In this document: in pieces, positions 49,646 through 63,580 of the stretch
Layout: each line of letters opens with the position of its first letter
How positions within the stretch are numbered: the first letter of the stretch is position 1
Assembly: GCA_051117555.1 (NCBI GenBank)
Contig: JBNPEG010000003.1
Coordinates: 1-64,000, forward strand
Length of the DNA: 64,000 bases
Direction of reading: 5' to 3'
DNA from: Elainellaceae cyanobacterium
GTDB taxonomy: Bacteria; Cyanobacteriota; Cyanobacteriia; CAZCXK01
The notes under the pieces: model-generated
The model's input: the letters and a program-made list of their open reading frames with translations, nothing else
Told to the model about the DNA's origin: nothing
Databases searched by the model: none
Translations under genes and position numbers: made by a program

Positions 49646-52072
49646 TCAGGATGTGCGAAATTTGCGCCGCAGCAGCAGTGAATTGGTAACAACACTAACT
49701 GAACTAAATGCCATTAATGCGCCTGCTGCTGCCGGGCTTAATAAAATCCCAAACGCGGGCAAGAGAATTCCTCCCGCAATAGGAATACCTAACACATTGT
49801 ATGCAAATGCCCAAAATAAGTTTTGACGAATTTTATTGAATGTTGCTTGACTCAGATGAATTGATTCAACGACGTCGTTTAGGCGATCGCGCATGAGAAT
49901 AATATCTGCTGCTTCGACAGCAATGTCGGTTCCAGAGTGTAGCGAAATCCCGATATCCGCCTGTGCTAGAGCGGGAGCATCATTGATTCCGTCTCCAACC
50001 ATGGCGATTTTTTGACCAGTTTGCTGCAGACGAGCGATCGCACTGGCCTTTTCATCGGGGCGAACGCCTGCCAAGACTTGCTCGGAGGATAAGCCCAGCG
50101 TCTTTGCGACAGCCTCTGCTGCAATCTGCTGATCGCCTGTCAGCAAAACAACCCCCAGATTTTGCTGACGCAGTTGATAGACGGCCTCGCGAGCCTCGGG
50201 TCGAATCGTATCTTGAATGGCGAGAATTCCAGCGGGCTGAGCATCGATTGCTAAATAAACAACCGTCTTGCCCTCTGTTAGAAGCTGCTGAGGTTGAATT
50301 TGATCAAATTCAGCCGTAGCAATGCCGCAGTTTTCGAGCCAGGACAAGGTGCCTAAGACGACGTGTTGTCCGGTTACATCTGCAGAGACTCCGAAGCCAG
50401 GTTCGGTGTAAAAATTTTCAGCCGCAAGAGTTGACAGATTTTGCTGGCGGGCTGAGAACATAATCGCATCAGCTAATGGATGGCGCGTACCACTTTCAAC
50501 CGTTGCGGCCATCTGTAATAGTTGGGACTCCGACATTTTATTTGAAAGAGAAATACAGTCTTTAACGATGGGTTGGCCAGTCGTCAGGGTTCCTGTTTTG
50601 TCGAATACGATCGTATCCAGCTGATGAACTTTCTCTAGCACATCTCCCCCACGAATCAAGAGCCCGCGTTCTGCGCCAATCCCAGACCCTACTAAGATGG
50701 CAGTCGGGGTTGCTAAGCCCAACGCGCATGGACAAGCAACCACTAACACGGCGATCGCCAGCTTTAGGCTCAGCAATAGCGGTGAGGTGTGCGCATCTGC
50801 TGTCATACCATGACCCACCATGTCATGGCTGCCCACAGCCCATGTCCCCTCATTCGACAAGACGTGTGACCAGAGTGAGGTGCCGACAAAATACCAAAAC
50901 AAAAACGTCAATGAGGAGGCAGTCATCACTCCATAGGTAAAATATCCGGCGACCGTGTCTGCCAAACTCTGAATGGGGGCTTTCCTCGCTTGAGCATCTT
51001 CGACCAGTTTGACAATCTGTGAAAGCACCGTCTTCTCGCCAATTTGGGTTGCCTTAATGGCGATCGCCCCTGATTGGTTGATGCTACCTGCCATGACAGG
51101 CTCTCCAGGTTGCTTTGCAATGGGCATGGGTTCACCTGTGAGCATGGCTTCGTTGACGGCAGTGTGTCCTGCCAAGACCTCGCCATCAACGGGGATCTTT
51201 TCACCTGGGAGCACCTGCAACCACTGCCCGATTTGAACGCGTTCGACCGGAATCTGAACACTGTTGGAAATACTGAGCGCGCCAGACCCAAGGGATGTCT
51301 GGTTTTGTAGCAGGCGAGCCTGAGACGGCTGAAGCGAAATCAGAGATTGGAGGGCGGATGCTGCCTTGCCCCGTGCTTGCTGCTCCAGCGTTCTACCCAA
51401 CAGAATAAATCCCACTAGCATTACGGGTTCATCGAAAAAACACTCCCACCCTAATGCGGGGAAAACCAAGGCAATCACACTAGCCGTATAGGACGCAATC
51501 ATGCCCAGCCCCACGAGGGTATTCATATTGGGAGAGTTGCGCCAAAGCCCCTTCCAGCCGTCAATTACAATAGAGCGTCCTGGCCCCAGCAAGGCTAGGG
51601 TGGCTAATCCCCAGTGAAATTCGATGGTGCTAAGAATTGGAATCTTAACCCATCCCCATTGCCCTAAATGGCCGACGGCTGAAAACACTAACAAAATGCT
51701 GGCGATCGCCAGTTGCCACCGTCGCTGCTGAAGTTCTAACCGCTGCTTCTCCGCAAAATCAAGTGTCCCTGCCGTATTTTCAGCTTTCCCGTTAGGCGAT
51801 GCGTCATGGTGCGGCAGACGCGGCTCAGACGGAAACCCTGATTCGGTGAGAGTATTTGCTAAATCGGCTGCGCTGACTGCCTCAGGATTGTGATCGACGG
51901 TCGCGAGTTCGGTTACCAGATTAACAGTTGCCGATGTTACACCCGACTGACGCTTGAGTTGATTTTCGACAGCCTGCACACATCCGGCACATTTCATGCC
52001 GCCGACATTAATTGTGGATGTTTTGGAAGCACTGTTAGAGGGGGCGATCGCTTGGTTTTGGCTCGTTTGCAT
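49646..52072 (-). CDS. Cu(I)-translocating P1B-type ATPase, CtaA-like
   Basis: GMKCAGC metal-binding domain, TGEP, CPCALG, DKTGTLT, HP, GDGINDAP and the YN / MAFSS Cu-type TM motifs. Confidence 0.93.
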   Translation of the reverse strand: MQTSQNQAIAPSNSASKTSTINVGGMKCAGCVQAVENQLKRQSGVTSATVNLVTELATVDHNPEAVSAADLANTLTESGFPSEPRLPHHDASPNGKAENTAGTLDFAEKQRLELQQRRWQLAIASILLVFSAVGHLGQWGWVKIPILSTIEFHWGLATLALLGPGRSIVIDGWKGLWRNSPNMNTLVGLGMIASYTASVIALVFPALGWECFFDEPVMLVGFILLGRTLEQQARGKAASALQSLISLQPSQARLLQNQTSLGSGALSISNSVQIPVERVQIGQWLQVLPGEKIPVDGEVLAGHTAVNEAMLTGEPMPIAKQPGEPVMAGSINQSGAIAIKATQIGEKTVLSQIVKLVEDAQARKAPIQSLADTVAGYFTYGVMTASSLTFLFWYFVGTSLWSHVLSNEGTWAVGSHDMVGHGMTADAHTSPLLLSLKLAIAVLVVACPCALGLATPTAILVGSGIGAERGLLIRGGDVLEKVHQLDTIVFDKTGTLTTGQPIVKDCISLSNKMSESQLLQMAATVESGTRHPLADAIMFSARQQNLSTLAAENFYTEPGFGVSADVTGQHVVLGTLSWLENCGIATAEFDQIQPQQLLTEGKTVVYLAIDAQPAGILAIQDTIRPEAREAVYQLRQQNLGVVLLTGDQQIAAEAVAKTLGLSSEQVLAGVRPDEKASAIARLQQTGQKIAMVGDGINDAPALAQADIGISLHSGTDIAVEAADIILMRDRLNDVVESIHLSQATFNKIRQNLFWAFAYNVLGIPIAGGILLPAFGILLSPAAAGALMAFSSVSVVTNSLLLRRKFRTS

Positions 52073-52212
52073 GGATGCTCAAATTAACTAAAATTGGCTG
52101 CAAATTAGATGCGTCTTCTTTGAGCGTAGGCCAAGCGTCGCTAAATTGGCTAAATTATTTTAATTTCTTTTGAGCTGGATGAATCCTGTTTATTAGCCAG
52201 AGGGTGAGTCGC

Positions 52213-52722
52213 TTAGAGACGCTGTGCGCCTGCCACGATTAGCTGCCAGAGGGAATGATTTGCCCAGCCAAACGGCAAACCTGCATCTGCTCCCGGGTAG
52301 CGAGCATAGAGTCGGAGCCCATAGTAGCCCAAAAATAGCGCAGCACCCGCGACTAAAATGGCTGGTTTCATACACCAGCGAATGTACCTGGCGGTGAGCG
52401 ATCGCCCACTAGTCAATTCTATAGAGGTATGGATGGCTGCGATTGCAAACGCACCAAATACTAATGGACCAAACCCGTGATACATGAATGCCTGATTCCA
52501 GTCTCCTCGGGCGATCGCCACAAATGACCGCGTCATTCCACATCCAGGACTTGGAAACCCCATGATTTGTTGGAACAAGCAGGGGTGTTCTGACAACTGC
52601 CAACTGTGGTTGTAGAGAACTGCGCCTGCGATCGGCGCCGCGCTGATTCCAAGAACAATACCCCTCAAGAAGCGGCCATTCGCTGATAGGCGGGATTGAT
52701 TGAATATGATCATACGACCCAA
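52213..52722 (-). CDS. DUF2752 domain membrane protein
   Basis: PCLF...G.PSPGCGMTRS....GDW..A...H. Confidence 0.8.
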   Translation of the reverse strand: MGRMIIFNQSRLSANGRFLRGIVLGISAAPIAGAVLYNHSWQLSEHPCLFQQIMGFPSPGCGMTRSFVAIARGDWNQAFMYHGFGPLVFGAFAIAAIHTSIELTSGRSLTARYIRWCMKPAILVAGAALFLGYYGLRLYARYPGADAGLPFGWANHSLWQLIVAGAQRL

Positions 52723-53294: not shown

Positions 53295-53558
53295 TTAGAA
53301 CCAACCTTTCTTGTTATTGATATAGGTTTGCACAAATTCTTCATCAGTCTTGGTGAGATAAATAATGCCTTCAACCAGCCCGATGATGCCGATCACGGGC
53401 GAGGCAATGAAGCACGTTAGGACGCTGACCAGCAACATGATCAGCCCCTCTGTTTGATACCCCAGTATAAACTTATGAATCCCCAGCGATCCCAGCAAAA
53501 TTCCGCAGATACCGGCTGCAATTTTTTTCTCTGCGCCTGGAAGAGAGCCGTTTGCCAT
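53295..53558 (-). CDS. TM2 domain protein (copy 1)
   Basis: KKIAAGICGILLGSLGIHKFILGY...EGIIYLTKTDEEF. RBS AGGAG upstream. Confidence 0.9.
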   Translation of the reverse strand: MANGSLPGAEKKIAAGICGILLGSLGIHKFILGYQTEGLIMLLVSVLTCFIASPVIGIIGLVEGIIYLTKTDEEFVQTYINNKKGWF

Positions 53559-53725
53559 TGAGGAATACTCCTAATTAATAATCCTTCTGTATCATTCATT
53601 ACGCAGCAAGTATACCCACTTCCGCATAGAGTTCGCCAATAAAGCAATAAATTAGTATTAATCTGTTCTGGCGAGTGTTGCTCACCCCAGCGCCATGATA
53701 TGCGGATATATGGAGAGAACTAAAA

Positions 53726-54499
53726 ATGGATGTAATTCCAGCTATTGATTTGTTAGACGGACGCTGCGTTCGGCTCTATCAGGGAGACTACGAGCGATCG
53801 CAGGTGTTTGGTGACGATCCGGTCGTTGTAGCGAAACAGTGGTCTGATCAGGGGGCACCCCGATTGCATCTTGTCGATTTGGATGGGGCAAAAGCAGGAC
53901 ATCCTGTCAATCAGTCAGTTATTGAAGCGATTATTCGTGCAGTTGATATCCCTGTCCAGGTTGGAGGAGGGTTGCGCGATCGCCACAGCATTTCTGATTT
54001 GTTCTCAATAGGGGTGAATCAGGCAATTTTAGGAACTGTTGCAGTCGAAAATCCAGATTTGGTCGCGCAATTGTGTGAGGAGTTTCCCGAACAAATCATC
54101 GTCGGCATCGATGCTCGCGATGGTAAGGTTGCAACTCGTGGTTGGATTGAGATGTCGGAAATTGGCGCAGTTGATCTCGCTCGACAAATGACCGAGCGCG
54201 GAGTCAGTCGCCTCATTTATACCGATATTCATCGAGATGGAACATTACAAGGTCCTAACCGGCAGGCATTGAGAGATTTAGCAGACGCTGTCTCGATTCC
54301 TGTAATTGCCTCTGGTGGAATTTCTTCTATCACAGATCTGCTGAGCTTACTTGCCCTTGAACCTGTGGGCGTCAGTGGAGTCATCATTGGGCGAGCTCTC
54401 TATACCGGAGACATTTCACTAAAGGAGGCAATTCGCGCGGTCGGTCCGGGTCGGTTGCAAGATATTCCACCTGATTTTGGGTCTTCAGCCTTCGCTTAA
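53726..54499 (+). CDS. hisA: ProFAR isomerase
   Basis: IPAIDL...[35 protein letters not shown] and IIGRALY. Confidence 0.96.
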
Positions 54500-55809
54500 A
54501 CCGCCTCTAGCCCGCTATGAACCCCAATCGCAGGTGTGATAGTGGGCTTATAAAGCGCCTCACGAGTTTCTACCATCGCTTCGATTAATCGATCTATTTC
54601 TTCGTGAGTATGGAGAGCATTGGCTGTGATGCGAAGCCGAGGCTTCGCGATAAACCAAATTGGAGAAACCCAGATGCCATATTCCTTGATCATCGTCTGA
54701 CCAAAGAGCTTCGGATCGACATCGGTTGGCAAAATGACAGGAATCACGTTGGTTTCGCCAATCGCATCAAAATCATGCTCGATCAGGCGCGATCGCAAAT
54801 AGCGTGTATTGTCTTGCAATCGTTGAACGAGTTCGGGCATTTGTTTGACCTGACGAATGCTCTCAAGCGCAGCGGCTGTTGTTGGAGGCGGGAGGGAAAT
54901 TGTCCCGATCGAGGTTGGGGAGACGTTTAGCAGCGGCTTTAGCTCAGCCACGTTGCTGCTAATGGCAGCTCCTGCAGATGCCGCAAATTTGGAAAATGTG
55001 GACATAATCAGCGGAACGATGCCTCGCTCAATGGCGTGCTGAGGGCGAATGCCAAAATGTTCGTAAATACCGCGACCCGTCGCACCAATCGCTCCACTGG
55101 CATGTGCTTCGTCCATGACGAGAACACTGCCCTCATAGTTTGCCATAACATCGATCATGCCAGGGAGCGGGGCAATGTCTCCATCCATCGAAAAGACAGC
55201 ATCTGAAATGACCATAATGCGGTCATCAGGTCGGGCATACCGCTTCAGCTTTCGGGCTAAGTCTTCAGTATCGCAGTGACGATACGCACGAACGCGAACC
55301 CGGGGGCTATAGCCAAATAGCTTGCCTGAACGGGTTCCAGCATTTGTTATTGCAGAAACAATGCAGCCGTGATTGAGAACATCACTCAAAATCAACGTTT
55401 CACGAGTATTCTGAAAGCCGGGAACCGGAATAGCGAGATGGCAAAACGCATCCATCAGTGCTTGTAATGCCATCCAAGCATTCAAGAATAGCTGGGTATG
55501 CGATAAATGCTTGAATGTCGAGATTTCATCTTCGAGTTGCCGATGCAGGTCAATGCGACCGCTCAAGACTGAGCACGAGCTATTTGACGTGCCGTACTGC
55601 ATGATTGCGTCAATTGCAGCTTGCTGCACGTGCTTATTTTGCACCAATCCGAGGACATCGTTGGTACAAAACGTTAGCACCGTCCGGCGATCGCCACTCG
55701 ACGCTTCCTCGATGTCGATAAAATTGCCATGCCTTCCATGACAGATATATTCATCAGGGTCTAATCCGCTTTCGTACCAGCGTTGAACGTATTCTTTAAC
55801 GACTTGCAC
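54496..55809 (-). CDS. PLP-dependent alpha-oxoamine synthase family (BioF/SPT/KBL-like), divergent
   Basis: [36 protein letters not shown] (PLP Lys) and RLRIT. GTG 55809 is preceded by GAGGGGAG. Confidence 0.85.
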
Positions 55810-56399
55810 AGTAATACTCCCCTCACCTTCTTGATATATAGATAGCCAATTAGACTCTGACTCGATCACATGCGGTTCTGACAAGATGCGCTACCTACGC
55901 CTGAACCAACATTTGATGAAAGAGACTCTCATGACCGTGATCTTGACCTTAGAACCATTCTCTCAAGAATGGAATTTTAAAAAAGAGGGCTAATTAATCA
56001 CCTCTTCTTACGACTTTGCCAGAAACTTATGAGTGCGTCTGGTGGTGTTGTGACAGTTCCGTTCATTCAAATGTGTAAAGTCCTGATAATTCGACGTTTT
56101 CAGACCATAGCCCGGAATCGAGAGACAGGAATTTCCCTCTGTGCATCACTGCCTGAGTCATTTTGGGATCAGTCCTGAAATGAATCTAACGGTGGGCTCG
56201 ATTGTCCTGTATATTCTTACATACTATATTTTGGGCTCGATCGTGGACTTGACACTCGCTGACTGGATCTCTGAGTAGCATTGGGCAAAACGCTAGATAA
56301 ACTTTCCCTAAACGTTTAATCTTAATTGGATTACGCACTAGAGTGCGAATTCATAGAATATTTGAAGTGTGGCAATTTGTGAACTGTCGCAATGGATGG

Positions 56400-57533
56400 C
56401 TATTGATGCTGTAAAGTCTCTGCGGGTTTGGATGCAGAATTGTTTGAACTGGGGTGAGCTGTGATGTCTGGAGAGGTGGTAAGGTCGGGTTGCATAAATT
56501 GTTCGTACTGCCTGACGATCACTCGCTGGAGAGCAATGATAGCAGGATTAATTTCAACGTAACGCTGCTTAGGATTTCTGAGATAGGTCTGCTGTTCGCT
56601 TTCCATCATGTCAATGTCTTGAGCTAAGAATCGATTCAGCATAAAGCGCTCAATGATGACGCTAAGCAGCGGCTTAAAGGGATTTAGCAGCCACTTTGGC
56701 ACCCTGACCTTAAAAAAGAACAAGGCAAACGATCGACTTTCGGCTAGCCCGACTGGAAGCCGCATCAGATATAGCGAAGACACTCCAGGCATTGAGCTGG
56801 CAAAGTGGGGATAGCGATAGTGAACGTTAATTGGCAGCGTGGTCACCTCGTCGGAGCGATCGCTCAATCCCAGAAATTTTGCTAGCCGCCCCTTGTAAGA
56901 TACGTGATATTCGGCGCGAACCGATGAGTGCGTCGTTTCGAGATTGGTAAGAATCGGATTAAACCATCCTTGAAGATCCTGATGAAGAAATCCGTGAAAT
57001 ACATCCATTGCGTTTTCATTGCACACTGAAAAATGAGCCTTAAAGTGAGCAGTGACGCGCACCATGAGCCAATCGTCTTGTTGATCGAATTCTGGTACTG
57101 CCAGCACTGGACGCTCGGGTGCTACGTCTGAATCACCGGGAAAGATCCAGATGAGCCCATATTTTTCTTGGATAGGATAGCTGCGAGCAACGGCACAGGG
57201 AAGCTTTTGGTCATCAGATAAATAGGGAATATTGACACAGCGCCCCTGTCCATCAAACTCCCAACCATGATAGGGGCAGACAATATGAGCGCCACTCACC
57301 TGGCCTTTATGGAGCGCAACACCTCGATGGGGACACGCGTTCTCAAGAGCATGGAGGTGTCCGTCTGCATCTCGATACACCGCGATCGCCTGCTGCCAAA
57401 TTTCAGCAGCCATCATTTTCCCGGGTTTTAGCTGATCTGCCCACCCGAGTGGATACCAGTGATTCGGATTAATTCCTACCTCTCGAATCACATTTTGGAC
57501 AGTTTCACCTTTGAGGATTGGTGCCGATTCCAT
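56400..57533 (-). CDS. Rieske non-heme iron oxygenase alpha subunit
   Basis: Rieske motif CPHRG...CPYHGW and mononuclear Fe motif ENAMDVFHGFLH...QD. ATG 57533 is the likely start. Confidence 0.92.
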   Translation of the reverse strand: MESAPILKGETVQNVIREVGINPNHWYPLGWADQLKPGKMMAAEIWQQAIAVYRDADGHLHALENACPHRGVALHKGQVSGAHIVCPYHGWEFDGQGRCVNIPYLSDDQKLPCAVARSYPIQEKYGLIWIFPGDSDVAPERPVLAVPEFDQQDDWLMVRVTAHFKAHFSVCNENAMDVFHGFLHQDLQGWFNPILTNLETTHSSVRAEYHVSYKGRLAKFLGLSDRSDEVTTLPINVHYRYPHFASSMPGVSSLYLMRLPVGLAESRSFALFFFKVRVPKWLLNPFKPLLSVIIERFMLNRFLAQDIDMMESEQQTYLRNPKQRYVEINPAIIALQRVIVRQYEQFMQPDLTTSPDITAHPSSNNSASKPAETLQHQ

Positions 57534-57680
57534 CTGCGCTGCTCTTCCCTTTGTTCTCAAACTGTTCTCAAACGATATTCAATGCTGACTAATTCTCAAT
57601 TGAATCAGCCTGAGTGACCAATAAGTGGCCAAATATTTATCATGGCATAATCAAGCTCTTACCCTATGAGAAGGGAATTG

Positions 57681-57764
57681 CTATAGCGACCTAAATCGCT
57701 TGTGAATTGTGAGCGGTGGGGCAGGCGCCGCTCACAATTCACAACCCATCTGGGATTGCTGTAG
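57681..57764 (+). mobile_element. Very small dispersed repeat, same family as 45259
   Basis: CTATAGCGACCTAAATCGCTTGTGAATTG...CACAACCCATCTGGGATTGCTGTAG, with an inner TTGTGAATTGTGAGCGG/CCGCTCACAATTCACAA hairpin. Confidence 0.75.
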
Positions 57765-57852
57765 AGGGGTTGTTCATTGCCAATTGCGGCTATGTTTTAG
57801 ATTATTTTTATACGTCAATGCTCCTAGTCAGTCAATTTTGAAGAATTGACCA

Positions 57853-59175
57853 TTGTGTGTTCTTATTACTATCCTACGGCTGATTTACGGGCTGAATTCG
57901 GTCATTATTAATGAGTGGTATAGTCGCAAACGTGCAGGAATTATGCCGCCGTTTTTGAAATTCTCTATGTTGCCTGCTACAAAACCATCGGCTAGAAATA
58001 ATCCGGATCCGAATTCTCGGCAGAAATTCTATCAGCTTTGCGTGCTGGTCGCAGCCGGATGTTTAACGACGATGACGGGCGGGGTGGTTTCACCAATCTT
58101 GCCAGAGATGATGCAACAGCTTAGCCTCGATCGGCAATGGGCGGGGACATTGGTCAGCATACACGCGTTGGCGATCGCCATATTTACGCCTCTGTTGGGC
58201 ATCCTGGCCGATCGAATTGGCAAGCTGAGAGTGTTGATCCCCGCCTTAATGCTGTATGCAGTCTTTGGGGTCGTCGGAGCGTTTGTACCCACTCTGCCGC
58301 CATTGCTCGCGACGCGGATATTACTTGGGATCGCCAGCGCTGGCATCGCTGCGGCAAGCATTGGGCTGCTAGGGACCATGTATGAGGGTGAGGCGCGATC
58401 GCGCATTTTGGGATACGCGACGAGTGCGATGACCACGGCAAGCATTTTGATTCCGATTGTGGGGGGATGGGTCGGTTCATTTCACTGGCGATTTGCGTTT
58501 TTTCTGTATGGATTGAGTCTTCCTACTGCCTTGGTTGCCGTTTTGCTGCTCAGAGAAACCCGATCGCATTCGTCCAGCCTCATTCCGGCTGGACAGAACA
58601 AGATTTTGGTTCAAACCATTCGAAAGCCCGAGGTGCTGAGGCTATATCTGACCATCATGCTGGCGGCGGCAATCGTCTATGCAGTTGTTATCTATACTCC
58701 GATTTACCTCAAAACGGTTATGGGTGCAGGGCCTGCCCTAAATGGGTTTGTATTGGGCATTCGGGCGATCGGAGCAGCGGTAGTCTCTGCGGTGCTTGCT
58801 AGCCGATTGGCAAAGCGCCTCGGAACTAACCAAACTATTGCCTTAGGATTCATCGTCATGGCACTCATGCTAATGACAATTCCGTTTCTCGACGAGCTGC
58901 GATGGATCTTGCCCACGGCAGTTTTGTTTGGTATGGGGTTCGGTGTGGCTATTCCGAATATATATAATGCCCTGGCTACTCTTGCGCCAGTCGACGTGCG
59001 ATCGAGCGTGCTCGCAATCGGAACAGGGGCTAACTCTCTAGGACAATTTATCTCACCCCTTATGCTCGGACCCATTTGGGATACAGTCGGACTTGCTGCC
59101 GTATTCTTTGGTGCGTCAGGGGTTGCTCTCATCGTTGGCTTACTCGTTTTCTTTCAGCGAGAATTGGAATCGTGA
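57853..59175 (+). CDS. MFS transporter (drug:H+ antiporter-like exporter); true start probably about 57943-57967
   Basis: About 12 TM segments, motif A GILADRIGK, and WRFAF. Confidence 0.9.
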   Translation: MCVLITILRLIYGLNSVIINEWYSRKRAGIMPPFLKFSMLPATKPSARNNPDPNSRQKFYQLCVLVAAGCLTTMTGGVVSPILPEMMQQLSLDRQWAGTLVSIHALAIAIFTPLLGILADRIGKLRVLIPALMLYAVFGVVGAFVPTLPPLLATRILLGIASAGIAAASIGLLGTMYEGEARSRILGYATSAMTTASILIPIVGGWVGSFHWRFAFFLYGLSLPTALVAVLLLRETRSHSSSLIPAGQNKILVQTIRKPEVLRLYLTIMLAAAIVYAVVIYTPIYLKTVMGAGPALNGFVLGIRAIGAAVVSAVLASRLAKRLGTNQTIALGFIVMALMLMTIPFLDELRWILPTAVLFGMGFGVAIPNIYNALATLAPVDVRSSVLAIGTGANSLGQFISPLMLGPIWDTVGLAAVFFGASGVALIVGLLVFFQRELES

Positions 59176-59196
59176 TTCTTTCACAGAATTCTATAC

Positions 59197-59284
59197 ATAG
59201 CAATTTGCAATTGCGTCAAGGACAGAAACGGTGTGTGGAGCGCGCCCCACACCACCGTACTTAACCCAAGTGCATACCGCTATA
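59197..59284 (-). mobile_element. Very small dispersed repeat (second family), ATAGC...GCTATA termini
   Basis: 24-nt imperfect terminal inverted repeats, several of whose mismatches become G-U on the - strand. Inner ACGGTGTGTGG/CCACACCACCGT hairpin. Confidence 0.6.
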
Positions 59285-59327
59285 ATCGCGTGATTGATGA
59301 GGATGGTTATTGCGATCGCCCTGGTTT

Positions 59328-60104
59328 CTACCGGACTATGATTTTGGGGTCAGGGTCTATCGCCTCTGAGGTTGACCGACGCTCTTCCAACCGTTTTTCC
59401 CAAGCATCGTGATTGGCTTTGGCGTCTTGAATGATGGGCGAAGCCTCGATTAGTCGGCAAACCAGCCAATTGACCCACGACAAGGGAAAACGCATCGGAC
59501 GCAGCACGTCAAGGAATAGCACGACGCGATAGCCGTCGGTGTCATTCCAAACTTCGTGATAATAGGTGTCGTCAAAAATTAAACTTTTTCCTTCTTCCCA
59601 ATGCGCGACTTGATCGTCGATTTGGATGCGACATTGATCTCTAGGCTCAGGAACTTTGAGCCCCAAATGATAGCGAATTAGCCCCTTATGCTTGCCCCGA
59701 TGACGGGGGATATGTTTGCCTGGCGCCAAGATTGAAAAGAAGGCGACTTTCAGCCCCGGAACTCTCTCTAAGAGTTGGGTTGTCTCAGGGCAGCGATCGC
59801 AGTTTTTTTGAGCCTTAAAACTATATGCCTTAAAGAAATAGGTCTTCCAACGGTTATCGTTGGCAATTCGATATTGGCGTGTGGAAATATCTTGAAAATT
59901 TGGCAATGCCTCTACGTCTTGAAGCACCTGATCAAGCTCTTGGCGGATGACGGCCCAGTTTGCCTCAAACTCGTGTGCCCAAGGAAACTGCTCTGCTGAG
60001 AAAAAGATTGAGTCTCCGACCAGCGAGTACTTTGGAACGAGCCGCTCGATATAGGGAACCGCTTTCTCAAGTCGTTTAACTACGAAATCAAAAATGCCTT
60101 TCAT
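59328..60104 (-). CDS. Aspartyl/asparaginyl beta-hydroxylase family 2OG-Fe(II) dioxygenase
   Basis: FSILAPGKHIPRHRG, RYHLGL, WEEGKSLIFDDTYYHEVWN and RVVLFLD. Confidence 0.9.
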   Translation of the reverse strand: MKGIFDFVVKRLEKAVPYIERLVPKYSLVGDSIFFSAEQFPWAHEFEANWAVIRQELDQVLQDVEALPNFQDISTRQYRIANDNRWKTYFFKAYSFKAQKNCDRCPETTQLLERVPGLKVAFFSILAPGKHIPRHRGKHKGLIRYHLGLKVPEPRDQCRIQIDDQVAHWEEGKSLIFDDTYYHEVWNDTDGYRVVLFLDVLRPMRFPLSWVNWLVCRLIEASPIIQDAKANHDAWEKRLEERRSTSEAIDPDPKIIVR

Positions 60105-60147
60105 TCACTCCTCGTGTTGCTCAGTCTATTTTTGTAACGGGATGATC

Positions 60148-61839
60148 CTATAGCTCGTAAGAATCGCCCGGCATTCTCACCTCTTGTTCGACGGTCAGCC
60201 CGGTTAAAAACTGACGATCTTCGTTGACTTTTGGGAACTTGATATGAGATTCAGGAATTCCATGTTGGAGAAACCGTTGGCGAAGTGCCGAAAAACTTCC
60301 ACGTGACAGAATCCTCAATCGGGGAGGCGGCACCTGATCTCGACGCTTCACTGCATAGGAGGTGTGAATTTCCTGAAGCCGTTGATCAAACCGGACGATA
60401 AATGCTTGGGGATGATCGAGTGAATATCCCGATGGAAGTTCAATATTAACCAGATAATGAGGCGGAATGCGATCGCCCGACAGGGTGATACAGAAATTCT
60501 CAAGGGGACTATCAAACTCTCGCTGGAGCGCTTGCATGACTTGAGTCACGTGAAACTCAGTTGTTTTTTCGGTTGTCGATGACAACAGCCCACCCCGACG
60601 ATGGCGAAATGTCACCAGAGGAGTTTGATTATAAAACCCAACCACCTCTACCACATCTCCAATGTCATACCGATAAAAACCGTTATAGTTAGTGACCAAG
60701 ATGCGGTACGATTCTCCAACTCTCACCTCTTCTGCCAGTAAGGTTTTAGGCTGATCGACCTCCCACTGATCGGGCGGGATAAACTCATAGAAGCCGGTGT
60801 CGAGCGATAGAACGGTGCCATCGGTATTAAAGTCTGGATAAATGCCAAAGACGGCTTCTGCTGATGCATAAAGTCCGCCAAAGATAGGCGTGTCTCCGAA
60901 ATAGTCAGGGTATCGTTCAAAGTAGAAATTTGACGTTCCTCCGCGCGCCGTCACAATAAACGACAAATTAGACCACGCAAGTTTTGGGGTCAGGCGACCT
61001 TCTGCCTTCAAAATCGCTTTTAGCTGAGCCGCTCGCCGAGGCGCAGGTGACAGTTGTCGCTCAAGCGTGTGACGGAGTTTGGGTTCTAGCTTGAGCCAGG
61101 GTGCGATCGCCCCGATTTCTAAATCTTCGAGGAGAGAGTCTGCGTGGTGTTCTAAATAGTCACACAACCGAAGTCCCAAGACCGGAAAGTTGGCACCCAG
61201 GACGCCTGTCTGGGGATTTCTCAATGCGAACAGCAAACACACATAATGACGCGCTAAACTATCTGCTGGTCGAAGCGCATCGTGGGGATGCGCAAAGACT
61301 TGGCGATGCAGAAACCCCGCCATTCGCAAATCGCCAACGCTCACCGGACCATACGGAATTCCGGCGGGTGTATGCCCTAATAATTGCGTTGAACTGGTTA
61401 ATAGCATCTTGCCAATCGGGCGCTTTTGCCGGTGAGCGGCTTCGAAGGCAAATCCCATGCCAAGGTGATTGGCGTGACTGCGGACGCGACGCGCACCGTG
61501 AGTGACCGGAATGAGCTTCTTCTTACCCGTTGATCCACTGGTGAGATTTAGGTAAATCACGGGATCGGGGGTCATCACATTAGCTTCGCCCTGAGCAATG
61601 CGGTCTAGATAGGGCTCGTAAAATTGATAGGGCTGAATAGGAATGCGATCGCAAAATTGATCAACGGTTTTAATGGACGCAAGTCCTAAATCGTGCCCCA
61701 ATTCGGTCTGCCGATGCGCGCGCAGCAGTGAAAAAAGGAACGTTTCTTGAGCCTCGCCTGGACGATAGGTTTTGCGAATAAATGCCTTTCTCGTACGCTG
61801 CGTCGTGGCAGCAATTAGTGCCAGCATCGGAGTTGTCAT
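60148..61839 (-). CDS. GH3-family acyl acid-amido synthetase
   Basis: Adenylation motifs TSGSTGKKKLIP, YASAE and GFYRYDIGD. FYEFIP and a C-terminal KFP. Confidence 0.9.
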   Translation of the reverse strand: MTTPMLALIAATTQRTRKAFIRKTYRPGEAQETFLFSLLRAHRQTELGHDLGLASIKTVDQFCDRIPIQPYQFYEPYLDRIAQGEANVMTPDPVIYLNLTSGSTGKKKLIPVTHGARRVRSHANHLGMGFAFEAAHRQKRPIGKMLLTSSTQLLGHTPAGIPYGPVSVGDLRMAGFLHRQVFAHPHDALRPADSLARHYVCLLFALRNPQTGVLGANFPVLGLRLCDYLEHHADSLLEDLEIGAIAPWLKLEPKLRHTLERQLSPAPRRAAQLKAILKAEGRLTPKLAWSNLSFIVTARGGTSNFYFERYPDYFGDTPIFGGLYASAEAVFGIYPDFNTDGTVLSLDTGFYEFIPPDQWEVDQPKTLLAEEVRVGESYRILVTNYNGFYRYDIGDVVEVVGFYNQTPLVTFRHRRGGLLSSTTEKTTEFHVTQVMQALQREFDSPLENFCITLSGDRIPPHYLVNIELPSGYSLDHPQAFIVRFDQRLQEIHTSYAVKRRDQVPPPRLRILSRGSFSALRQRFLQHGIPESHIKFPKVNEDRQFLTGLTVEQEVRMPGDSYEL

Positions 61840-61896
61840 GAATCAGAACCTCACACCATCTTCACACCATCTATAATCTTGCGTTGATCGATGCTC

Positions 61897-61983
61897 ATAG
61901 CCCTACGGGCTTGGATTTGTGGTTAAAATCCGCATGCCGCAGGGTTCTACGTCCGATAGTCTGACGCGAGAGCATAGGGCTAT
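61897..61983 (-). other. Structured repeat or candidate leader RNA, copy 1 (5' of GH3 gene)
   Basis: Termini ATAGCCCTACG...CATAGGGCTAT. Shares several sequence blocks with 63626-63693. Confidence 0.6.
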
Positions 61984-62185
61984 ACCGCTCATTGCATTAA
62001 TTTGCTGAGAAATATTAAACCATTCTTCGTCTCGTCTCTAAATGATTTCAATAGCTTATCGCTATGGAGTGCAGGGTGTGGGTACTGATTGAGACAGCTT
62101 TTAAAGGGGTACATACCTCTGACCGGTCAATTCCACGTCTTTCGTTGGACGAGAGAATCTGGGGATCTGCCGAAAATCGTAGTGG

Positions 62186-63580
62186 CTATTCGCTGGTATT
62201 TGCCTGTTTGTCTCTAGTCGGCGTGCAGTGACTTGCAATCAGTGCGATTGTGAACCACCAAACGGTGCTCACTTGCGGACGATACCAAACGGTATCGACT
62301 AATCCATGAGCTAACATCCCAACGGCAGTGGCGATCGCCGCAATGAGCCAGATACCCTGGCGATCGCCCCCCTGACGCAATCGTTGAAGCTGTATCCAGC
62401 CGTGGTTCAACGTGACGAGCAAGATCCACAGGAAACAGATAAATCCAATAAATCCTGTCTCGACGATAATTTCTAAAAATACGGAATATGCGCTGAGTGC
62501 CGTATAGCCCGCTTCTTGATAAAAAGGATAAACTTTGTTGAAGGCGTCGTTGCCTGGACCGATTCCCAATATTGGGCGATCGCCAATCATAGCTAGCACA
62601 GACTTCCAGACATTCATTCGGAAACCGCCGCTGCTGTCGTCTTGCCAGCTAAAGATACTCGATACGCGATCATAAAGTGGGTCGACAGTGAGCACAGCGG
62701 AGGTTAGAAGTGCAGCAGAGCCGCCTAAGACGAGTGGCAACGTCCACCTGCGCCAGAATTTAGACCAATGAATTCTAAACCAGTGAATGAGCAAAAGGAC
62801 AGCAATAAACCCACCCGCGACCATTCCGATCCAACCGCCTCGGCTAAAGGTCAACACCAAACACGCCAAATTGACGAGCGTCATAACACCAGCTAGCAAT
62901 TTTGCGCCCCAGTGTTTCCAGCCAAAGATGGCAACGCCGCTAAATATCGCCGCCGGAATTAGATAACCCGCTAACAAATTTGGATTGCCTAGATAGCTAT
63001 ATACGCGAGTTGTGCCTGCCAAGGAGGATTCTGGATCAACCCATGTGGCCAGTGCCGACGCGCCAAAAAACCACTGACGTAATCCCACAATGCTAACTAG
63101 CAACGCGGCATGTAAATAAACGCCAATCACAACGCTACGAATCTGGGGCGATCGCAGCAGTCGGGCTAACAGTGCGAATAGTAATAAGTAGAGAGTGAGT
63201 TTGATCCAGCCGTCGAACGCATATATCCGGACTGGCGATAGTGCGGTTGCAATAGTTGCAATTCCCCAATATAGAAAAATAGTCAGATGAATCGGCGTGA
63301 CCCCAACGCCCGATTCATCGGATACCGTTAGCAGCACCCAAAATCCACCACAGACGAGCAGTAAAAGCCCAATCCACGTTGTCGACAATACTGGAGATAA
63401 ACCAAATATTAGGAGAACAAACCCCGTTGCGATGAGCTCAGCCCATTGAAGCAGCCAACTTTCCTTGCGCCATGCTCCGGCTAGCCCCACAATCTGATGG
63501 AGATAACTTGATTGATTCCACTCGCGAATCGACAACCGGCTGAGAGTCAGCTGTTGCCAGATGAATTGCATGGTTTTCAT
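62186..63580 (-). CDS. ictB: IctB family protein (O-antigen ligase/Wzy_C-like membrane protein)
   Basis: LATWVDP, TRVYSYLGNPNLLAGY, TFSRGGW, FRMNVW, GIGPGN, ALSAYS and HGLVDTVWYRP. Confidence 0.9.
   Translation of the reverse strand: MKTMQFIWQQLTLSRLSIREWNQSSYLHQIVGLAGAWRKESWLLQWAELIATGFVLLIFGLSPVLSTTWIGLLLLVCGGFWVLLTVSDESGVGVTPIHLTIFLYWGIATIATALSPVRIYAFDGWIKLTLYLLLFALLARLLRSPQIRSVVIGVYLHAALLVSIVGLRQWFFGASALATWVDPESSLAGTTRVYSYLGNPNLLAGYLIPAAIFSGVAIFGWKHWGAKLLAGVMTLVNLACLVLTFSRGGWIGMVAGGFIAVLLLIHWFRIHWSKFWRRWTLPLVLGGSAALLTSAVLTVDPLYDRVSSIFSWQDDSSGGFRMNVWKSVLAMIGDRPILGIGPGNDAFNKVYPFYQEAGYTALSAYSVFLEIIVETGFIGFICFLWILLVTLNHGWIQLQRLRQGGDRQGIWLIAAIATAVGMLAHGLVDTVWYRPQVSTVWWFTIALIASHCTPTRDKQANTSE

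Follow-up and report, generated by a model that had tools for sequence, protein, structure and literature searches.

A conserved cyanobacterial gene cluster predicted to make and transport a ceramide-like lipid

The first 64,000 nucleotides of contig JBNPEG010000003.1 from an Elainellaceae cyanobacterium (assembly GCA_051117555.1), a stretch that is referred to here in its whole length as the window, carry five genes between hisA and ictB that encode a GH3 acyl-acid amido synthetase (GH3), a hydroxylase of the AspH/LpxO/OlsC family (AspH), an MFS transporter, a Rieske oxygenase and an alpha-oxoamine synthase (AOS). This five-gene grouping is conserved well beyond chance and is common to many cyanobacteria. 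In other genomes AOS is joined by a GNAT protein and by an SDR of the epimerase/dehydratase family, which in the window's own genome lie on a second contig (C86). Because the GNAT protein is a homologue of the Escherichia coli YghO and is accompanied by AOS and SDR partners, these three core genes can be regarded as a probable counterpart of the ceramide triad of other bacteria. Family assignments and gene context make it likely that the five window genes and the C86 pair belong to one lipid system, and the best explanation, in which we place reasonable confidence, would be a pathway for a hydroxylated, N-acylated long-chain amino-alcohol (ceramide-like) lipid, probably a membrane lipid that has yet to be described, together with its transport.

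The genes were identified from a listing of open reading frames (ORFs) and from Pfam and NCBIfam family scans of the window proteins:

53726-54499, plus strand: hisA, flanking gene (TIGR00007, 282 bits against a cut-off of 229)
54496-55884, minus strand: AOS (PF00155, E 1.4e-32), predicted long-chain-base synthase
56400-57560, minus strand: Rieske [2Fe-2S] non-haem-iron oxygenase (PF00355, 92 bits; VanA_C, 23.3 bits against a cut-off of 23.5)
57561-57852, no strand: intergenic region between the divergent Rieske and MFS genes, with presumed promoters (direct sequence reading)
57853-59175, plus strand: MFS transporter (PF07690, 197 bits), predicted lipid flippase or exporter
59328-60104, minus strand: Fe(II)/2-oxoglutarate hydroxylase of the AspH/LpxO/OlsC family (PF05118, 190.5 bits), predicted acyl-chain 2-hydroxylase
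60148-61839, minus strand: GH3 acyl-acid amido synthetase (PF03321, PF23571 and PF23572, all over their cut-offs), ATP-dependent amide ligase
62186-63580, minus strand: ictB, flanking gene (TIGR00947, 598 bits against a cut-off of 366)

The layout agrees with a first-pass annotation made from the sequence, which had placed four co-oriented enzyme genes and an MFS gene of opposite orientation in the space between hisA and ictB. The five genes fill this interval, and both flanking genes pass the cut-offs of their families. Between the stop of GH3 at 60148 and the start of AspH at 60104 lie 43 bp, and the Rieske and MFS genes diverge over 292 bp from their starts at 57560 and 57853. All ORFs in the gap of ~515 bp between AOS and the Rieske gene have 50 aa or fewer, and no gene resembling an acyl carrier protein (ACP) was found there. 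An Rfam search of 53500-62500 at E <=0.1 gave zero matches, and the intergenic regions have no clear excess of promoter-like sites (14 vs 9.2 +/- 3.0 in shuffled sequence) or of terminator-like sites (12 vs 7.8 +/- 2.7).

Conservation of the cluster in cyanobacteria

The 77 best GH3 loci were fetched from a 185,579-species genome collection and scored by tblastn (E <=1e-15, alignment over at least half of the query, gene-specific identity thresholds of 35-60%), with the neighbourhood defined as the region within 10 kb of GH3. The named records among them are all cyanobacteria, and some are titled only 'uncultured bacterium'. They include Nostocales, Chroococcidiopsidaceae, Coleofasciculus, Gloeocapsa, Thermosynechococcaceae, Oculatellaceae and Elainellaceae, and 2 or 3 are close relatives of the window, the nearest being Elainellaceae metagenome-assembled genomes. 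The neighbours were distributed as follows, first in all loci and then in the 44 that are at least 15 kb long:

MFS: 42/77 loci; 31/44 long loci
AspH: 41/77; 26/44
FA_hydroxylase: 21/77; 15/44
AspH or FA_hydroxylase: 60/77, with both in 2; 39/44
AOS: 25/77; 20/44
Rieske: 25/77; 19/44
GNAT: 18/77; 15/44
SDR: 15/77; 13/44
Cysteate synthase: 0/77
ictB (flank): 2/77; 1/44
hisA (flank): 3/77; 3/44

The cluster genes recur in 15-42 loci, ictB and hisA in just 2 and 3, respectively, and this contrast shows that the cluster itself is conserved and that general synteny is not the cause. GH3 stands alone in 11 of the 77 loci, 8 of which are shorter than 15 kb. Beside GH3, AspH and FA_hydroxylase nearly exclude each other, which suggests that the two do equivalent work.

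Genome distribution was followed in a sample of 41 genomes that comprises the window's own, 3 more of the same family and 37 that represent 26 further families of the class. AOS orthologues (at least 69% identity) are present in 18 of these genomes, Rieske orthologues (at least 53%) in 16, the MFS orthogroup in 17, nearly always as a single copy, strong GH3 matches in 16 and AspH orthologues (at least 56%) in 12. GNAT is encoded in 17, which are the AOS genomes minus G001, a genome that is 61% complete. All genomes with the Rieske, MFS, strong GH3, AspH or GNAT gene belong to the 18 that bear AOS. Every one of the 16 strong-GH3 genomes holds AOS and 15 also hold GNAT, the exception again being G001. 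Furthermore, GNAT was found elsewhere in 5/5 further genomes whose GH3 locus is without core genes. One of these five, the reduced 3.2-Mb genome of the diatom symbiont Richelia intracellularis HH01 (G044, L140), keeps a GH3-AspH pair and encodes a YghO-like GNAT elsewhere.

Within the same sample AOS adjoins the Rieske gene in 14 of the 16 genomes holding both, and MFS adjoins AOS or Rieske in 12 genomes and GH3 or AspH in 8. The transporter gene remains with AspH-GH3 in two genomes where AOS-Rieske is separate (G003, G028), and with AOS or Rieske in six where GH3 is elsewhere or was not found (G013, G029, G031, G037, G012, G038). AspH directly adjoins Rieske and MFS in G039 (L057), where GH3 is not nearby, and in two other loci (L132, L135) it adjoins AOS, with GH3 on the far side of the Rieske-AOS pair. 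Maps of 41 fetched loci place the order AOS-Rieske, then divergently MFS-GH3, in three families (f1, f15, f25). The grouping proposed in the first-pass annotation is borne out by this neighbourhood analysis: the five genes are co-localised in many cyanobacterial families, their order is kept, and they occur in the same genomes of the sample. A Pfam scan of 11 ORFs near AOS/Rieske and AspH genes without an adjacent GH3, which included two loci from genomes without GH3 (L050, L052), found no alternative adenylating enzyme or other conserved partner. These ORFs encode LepA, a lectin-like protein, an ABC transporter, ShlB, NdhH, a glycosyltransferase, a lysozyme, a PepSY protein, a radical SAM protein, a permease and one protein without a Pfam match.

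Upstream of the cluster, the window encodes a P1B ATPase of the copper type that carries an HMA domain (49646-52072, minus strand), and a DUF2752 protein (52213-52722, minus strand). The region 49646-52722 is syntenic with G002 and G003 only.

The probable ceramide-type core and its accompanying enzymes

In its fuller form the cluster continues from AOS into a GNAT protein of ~385 aa and an SDR of the epimerase/dehydratase family. Several loci from Nostocales, Chroococcidiopsidaceae, Coleofasciculus and Gloeocapsa have a nine-gene order, namely Amidohydrolase-Mpo1-FA_hydroxylase, GH3, MFS and Rieske-AOS-GNAT-SDR, in which FA_hydroxylase, Mpo1-like and Amidohydro_2 genes replace the AspH-type hydroxylase upstream of GH3. 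The nine genes were seen together at L124, L129, L131, L139 and L141, and parts of the set at L105, L120, L138 and L142. The window's own genome encodes the GNAT (385 aa) and the SDR (317 aa) at C86:28970-31077 (L145:7970-10077), where the two genes share 4 bp and the genes around them, for a TPR protein, a subtilase, a phosphatase and a pilin, are unrelated. The cluster between hisA and ictB is accordingly a genuine but incomplete group, as two core genes lie on another contig.

The GNAT protein has zero Pfam matches at E <=1e-5 and zero NCBIfam matches at E <=0.01. Weak GNAT matches (23.6-28.4 bits against a cut-off of 20.7) appear when Pfam is searched at E up to 10, and in the ESM Atlas it falls into 'N-acetyltransferase' clusters only. 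Full-length relatives were found by tblastn in plasmid records of Roseomonas, Streptomyces, Sphingomonas and E. coli, the last being yghO. The C86 protein and E. coli YghO align end to end with 28% identity over 379 aa (E 1e-54). Next to yghO, the E. coli record has lptF-lptG and an operon encoding a class I/II aminotransferase, an acyl carrier protein, an epimerase/dehydratase and a fatty acyl-AMP ligase. According to PMC9386255 these operon genes are named spt, acpR, epi and aasR, and yghO (ECD_02850) is the counterpart of Caulobacter CC_1154, an N-acyltransferase required for dihydroceramide. An N-acyltransferase of the bCerS/YghO type is encoded in the window's genome (C86), and this type is linked to AOS by genome distribution and, in other genomes, by position: of the 17 GNAT-bearing genomes in the sample, 5 have it next to AOS. 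As for the other two members of the triad and the E. coli proteins, AOS is 28% identical to Spt, and the SDR (PF01370) is 22% identical to the epimerase-type protein and scores 215 bits on HpnA (cut-off 368) and 161 bits on SdmB (cut-off 600). A plasmid of Streptomyces sp. NBC_01001 (L143, 4769-9295) encodes AOS, GNAT, an epimerase-family SDR and a stand-alone condensation-domain protein in one run. The Streptomyces GNAT is 33% identical to the cyanobacterial one, and the triad genes follow the cyanobacterial order, accompanied by another kind of amide-forming enzyme.

AOS stays below every curated NCBIfam cut-off. Its top model is bioF (TIGR00858, 235.7 vs 426 bits), and it reaches 191/460 bits on KBL, 169/339 on ALAS and 87/428 on a CqsA-type autoinducer synthase, and 176/640, 165/500 and 118/670 on the serine palmitoyltransferase (SPT) models NF047600, NF047599 and NF047603, respectively. 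The closest solved relative in a PDB search is the Sphingobacterium SPT (3a2b, 146 bits), and the solved cysteate acyltransferase 28eh lies below it with 109 bits. A TFSK motif at residue 296 contains what we take to be the pyridoxal phosphate-binding lysine. AOS orthologues are 425-442 aa long, with identities of 69-98%, and they align from about residue 20-25 of the window AOS, hence the listed TTG start is probably too far upstream and the true start probably lies near 55810-55820. The only other AOS of the genome is the terminal domain of a 2696-aa open frame (C132:13597-14646, L041), which scores 361 bits on the bioF model. Giant frames of this type also occur in G001-G003 and in G019, where the frame adjoins a second AspH paralogue (L065).

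The Rieske protein has the motif CPH...CPYH (CxH...CxxH) at residue 76, presumably the ligands of the Rieske cluster, and DVFHGFLH at residue 186, which we take as the His pair of the mononuclear iron and in which the spacing between the histidines is one residue shorter than in DdmC. With both motifs it has the hallmarks of a Rieske non-haem-iron oxygenase. Its top NCBIfam model, matched over the full length, is SdmA (NF052579), on which its 239.3 bits fall short of the cut-off of 600, and its PDB relatives are DdmC and SxtT with about 85 bits. The protein is predicted to be of the DdmC/SxtT/KshA/SdmA type and to act as a lipid hydroxylase, desaturase or methyl oxidase. Among the five cluster proteins only the MFS protein has hydrophobic segments, and it has several; its start probably lies later than listed because orthologues align from residue 20-60.

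The AspH-type protein matches PF05118, and two of its histidines, which are presumably iron ligands, align with those of human AspH. It aligns over its full length with the OlsC model (NF052565) at 269.3 bits, below the equivalog cut-off of 450, and reaches 142 of 500 bits on LpxO, and is accordingly a relative of OlsC and not an equivalog. OlsC and LpxO hydroxylate acyl chains at C-2, and the FA_hydroxylase members Scs7 and Sur2 act on lipid acyl chains or sphingoid bases. Pfam describes the Mpo1-like family as a 2-hydroxy-palmitate dioxygenase. In the family scans the accessory families OlsC, FA_hydroxylase and Mpo1 are all lipid hydroxylase types.

GH3 is a clear member of its family, with domain scores of 260.8, 91.6 and 68.3 bits against cut-offs of 23.6, and it matches plant GH3 structures over the full length with 106-127 bits. 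The motifs SGSTG..K, YSSAE and YRYDIGD (residue 389), which we take to be the nucleotide (ATP/AMP)-binding motifs, are intact. Across 16 cyanobacterial homologues no variation is seen at S101, G102, T104, G105, K108, E328, Y391, D392, G394 and D395, and almost none at Y324 and A327. On the OlsH model (NF052613) the protein reaches 88.1 of 620 bits, in 2 stretches. OlsH is a GH3 enzyme that, as reported in PMC12493201, joins free fatty acids to ornithine using ATP and yields N-acyl-ornithine; its characterisation in 2025 leaves the first-pass statement that bacterial GH3 proteins are largely uncharacterised partly dated. Tandem GH3 duplicates are common beside the cluster (L025, L029, L072, L074, L084, L093, L117, L123, L141), some genomes have at least three GH3 paralogues, and in one clade of these a response regulator and a histidine kinase form a linked pair with the GH3 gene (L033, L034, L038). 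The window's own genome has a GH3 paralogue that is 58% identical to the window GH3 and directly adjoins a cysteate synthase (C194:13561-16716, L028; TIGR03844, 515 bits against a cut-off of 325). Cysteate synthase passes this cut-off in 6 of the 41 genomes, where it adjoins a second-clade GH3 in all 6 and AOS in none, and the pairing suggests an acyl-cysteate conjugate.

A predicted pathway and its competitors

From the domain identities, the conserved neighbourhood, the shared genome distribution and the homology between GNAT and YghO, we infer every substrate, the order of the steps and the product of the following route. AOS would condense an amino acid with a long-chain acyl thioester to a 2-amino-3-keto long-chain base, GNAT would N-acylate this base, and the SDR would reduce the ketone. 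The Rieske oxygenase may then hydroxylate or desaturate the lipid or oxidise one of its methyl groups, and the OlsC-like enzyme would hydroxylate an acyl chain, its place being taken elsewhere by the set of FA_hydroxylase, Mpo1-like protein and amidohydrolase. The MFS protein would flip or export the lipid, and GH3 would form a further amide bond with ATP, so that the predicted end product is a hydroxylated ceramide-like aminolipid. The first-pass annotation had named a sphingoid-like base with an acyl chain, oxidised and exported, among possible products; as a class this fits the context of an AOS beside a YghO/CC_1154 homologue and a reductase, and the product as such stays a prediction.

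For GH3 two roles can be put forward, each only tentatively. In the first, it would load a free, possibly 2-hydroxy, fatty acid onto an amine of the pathway, as OlsH does with ornithine, which is supported by analogy because the paralogous GH3 adjoins the enzyme that supplies its presumed amine, cysteate. In the second, which we hold to be about as uncertain, the lipid itself would carry a carboxyl group, to which GH3 would couple an amino acid; methyl oxidation by the SdmA-like Rieske enzyme could provide this group, or the BioF-like AOS could bring it in by using a dicarboxylic acyl substrate.

Several observations weigh against a ceramide-like lipid pathway. In a plain ceramide, a second amide ligase beside GNAT would find neither a free amine nor a free carboxyl group, and GH3 is not obligatory, as G024 and G029 carry AOS, Rieske, GNAT and MFS with no GH3 found. 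Among the 44 long GH3 loci, 21 are without AOS, Rieske, GNAT or SDR within 10 kb. AOS reaches no curated SPT cut-off and has bioF as its top NCBIfam model, and the SDR, only 22% identical to the E. coli epimerase-type gene, scores higher on the HpnA and SdmB models. The compared genomes are related, hence the distribution counts overstate independence. In addition, the best PDB match of AOS to the Sphingobacterium SPT is not diagnostic, because the BioF of Nostoc punctiforme matches the same enzyme best: PMC8895605 describes a true BioF that has this SPT as its top relative, yet does not make 3-ketodihydrosphingosine. The same source reports that Npun_R3567, the sole gene tested so far for cyanobacterial sphingolipid synthesis, proved to be BioF, and that sphingolipids were undetected in N. 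punctiforme, which has no other AOS. That negative result concerns another AOS clade, in a strain described there as being without the window-type AOS.

The strongest competitor, which is nevertheless unlikely, assumes two independent lipid pathways whose genes simply tend to lie close to each other: AOS and Rieske, with GNAT and SDR, would lead to a ceramide-like lipid, and GH3 and AspH, with or without MFS, to a hydroxylated N-acyl amino acid or lyso-aminolipid. OlsH and OlsC, the nearest named NCBIfam families of GH3 and AspH, both serve ornithine lipid according to PMC12493201, and the tightest pairing is that of GH3 with AspH or FA_hydroxylase (60/77 loci). The 21 long GH3 loci without a nearby core gene and the AOS module without GH3 in G024 and G029 also fit such a division. 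The paralogous GH3 clade pairs with cysteate synthase in 6/6 cases, which suggests that GH3 enzymes accept whatever amine the neighbour supplies. Against separate pathways stands the presence of AOS and/or GNAT in 16/16 strong-GH3 genomes and in the 5/5 further GH3 genomes tested. Moreover, the single-copy MFS gene adjoins either module, AspH can lie directly by Rieske/MFS or AOS where GH3 is not adjacent (G039, L132, L135), and the order GH3-MFS-Rieske-AOS is kept across distant families.

A diffusible signal or small specialised metabolite, that is, an alpha-hydroxyketone or amino-ketone of the CqsA/LqsA type capped by GH3 through an amide and exported by MFS, is improbable. The AOS family includes autoinducer synthases, plant GH3 enzymes conjugate hormones, and the MFS gene suggests export; however, the CqsA-type match is the third-weakest of the eleven AOS models listed. 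The companions (YghO-like GNAT, OlsC-like, FA_hydroxylase and Mpo1-like proteins) all belong to lipid-type families, and retention of the genes in the reduced R. intracellularis genome better fits a structural role.

Even less probable is a sulfonolipid pathway of the capnine type, in which AOS would join cysteate, made by the C194 synthase, with an acyl thioester and GH3 would N-acylate the sulfonated base. PMC13692747 reports that cysteate acyltransferases are enzymes of the AOS family, that the route they serve parallels sphingolipid synthesis, and that first-shell residue swaps failed to switch their specificity. The window's own genome does encode a cysteate synthase beside a GH3 paralogue, but this enzyme occurs in 6/41 genomes as compared with 18/41 for AOS. 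It always lies by the other GH3 clade and never by AOS, it is missing from all 77 window-type GH3 loci, and AOS is closer to SPT (146 bits) than to the cysteate acyltransferase (109 bits). The capnine reading was rejected on the genome distribution and gene position of cysteate synthase.

It is scarcely credible that AOS is the biotin enzyme BioF among unrelated housekeeping or stress genes. The top NCBIfam model and the unusually high conservation of AOS could point in this direction, and in its own genome, where bioD is present, a stand-alone canonical BioF was not found, the other AOS being the domain of the 2696-aa frame. AOS is, however, under the 426-bit cut-off, and this is passed by a separate gene (455-466 bits) in G017, G025, G027 and G029, where the window-type AOS scores 230-237 bits; in G013 the window-type AOS has 224 bits and the best other gene 366, under the cut-off. 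Because a true BioF coexists with it in 4/5 genomes tested, the window AOS is not BioF, and the assignment was rejected. Furthermore, the window-type AOS is confined to 18/41 cyanobacterial genomes, those with the YghO-like GNAT, and bioB was not found in the window's own genome. Equally implausible is the tailoring of a triterpenoid (sterol or hopanoid) by the Rieske protein and the SDR as SdmA/SdmB-like methyl-group demethylases, which would draw on the full-length SdmA match (239 bits) and on the HpnA and SdmB matches of the SDR, since all three scores are far below the cut-offs (600, 368 and 600 bits), AOS and the YghO-like N-acyltransferase have no role in triterpenoid demethylation, and the SDR is operon-linked to GNAT on C86.

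Known relatives and meaning for cyanobacterial lipids

The predicted ceramide-like pathway has its closest parallel in the proteobacterial ceramide pathway, with Spt, AcpR, AasR, CerR (epi) and bCerS (aca; CC_1154 or E. coli B YghO). Both have a triad of the same enzyme kinds, in cyanobacteria as AOS, a ~380-aa YghO-homologous GNAT and an epimerase/dehydratase SDR, which are often clustered in that order. Unlike the proteobacterial system, the cyanobacterial cluster is without a dedicated ACP or fatty acyl-AMP ligase, and it has a set of its own consisting of GH3, Rieske, MFS and the OlsC-like enzyme (or FA_hydroxylase, Mpo1 and amidohydrolase). Its AOS, at 28% identity to Spt, reaches no SPT cut-off, and in the window's genome the triad is split over two contigs.

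Other systems resemble parts of the cluster. The ornithine-lipid pathway with OlsH/OlsI of Singulisphaera acidiphila and the rhizobial OlsC offer the same pairing of a GH3 ligase with an AspH/LpxO/OlsC hydroxylase, with free fatty acids as the likely acyl donors; the window proteins, however, score below the cut-offs of the models (88/620 bits on OlsH, 269/450 on OlsC), the locus has no OlsI-type alpha/beta-hydrolase or OlsG methyltransferase, and its neighbours are AOS, Rieske and MFS. The capnine pathway (cysteate synthase, cysteate fatty acyltransferase and 3-ketocapnine reductase) follows a similar logic of AOS and reductase, and the same genome encodes a cysteate synthase by a GH3 paralogue, which is nonetheless unlinked to the window AOS by position or genome distribution. 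The sterol C-4 demethylation pair SdmA/SdmB provides the top named model for the Rieske protein and one of the best for the SDR, whereas neither protein comes near the cut-offs and the gene context is that of an amino-lipid. Plant GH3 enzymes (JAR1, GH3.5, GH3.12) match the window GH3 in all three domains over the full length, with conserved nucleotide-binding motifs, and differ in that the window enzyme has a bacterial host and a lipid-related neighbourhood.

The kinds of enzyme are known; what is new is the cyanobacterial setting and the combination, in which a ceramide-type triad is accompanied by a GH3 ligase, by a dedicated MFS transporter, by a Rieske oxygenase and by a hydroxylase set of either the OlsC-like or the FA_hydroxylase kind. 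A literature search whose scope left aside Stankeviciute et al. 2022 and its supplements found no description of the cluster. To our knowledge, ceramide-type lipids have been reported from two cyanobacteria only, Scytonema julianum and Moorea producens. The genes for sphingolipid-type lipids in cyanobacteria are not known, and the locus and its relatives define a candidate set of 7-9 genes. Many strains that can be cultured carry it, and it is present even in the reduced genome of a symbiont, so the question is directly testable. Among the culturable carriers are Nostoc minutum NIES-26 (L120) and Coleofasciculus sp. H7-2 (L139), both with the full cluster, and Calothrix parasitica NIES-267 (L111), in which a GH3-AspH-MFS-Rieske run extends up to the edge of the fetched locus.

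A bolder reading, which we regard as speculative, is that the cluster makes an undescribed class of sphingolipid-like molecules in many cyanobacterial orders, with GH3 as a thioester-independent, ATP-driven amide ligase. GH3 may then be a further 'ceramide synthase', loading free (2-hydroxy) fatty acids onto the long-chain base, or a ligase for the head group that adds an amino acid to a carboxyl made by the Rieske enzyme. Other GH3 clades, among them the paralogues beside cysteate synthase, may give variant head groups, and the conserved MFS may be the missing flippase of a bacterial ceramide pathway.

To conclude, the bacterial GH3 family, of which a single bacterial member (OlsH, 2025) has been characterised, is placed here in a second lipid context. 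The cluster also offers candidate answers to two open points of ceramide synthesis, namely how free fatty acids enter the pathway without acyl-CoA, and which transporter moves the lipid across the inner membrane. As for the latter, a gap concerning the Caulobacter ceramide transporter is noted in PMC11087976, and if the proposed pathway is true, the MFS protein would fill a gap of this type.

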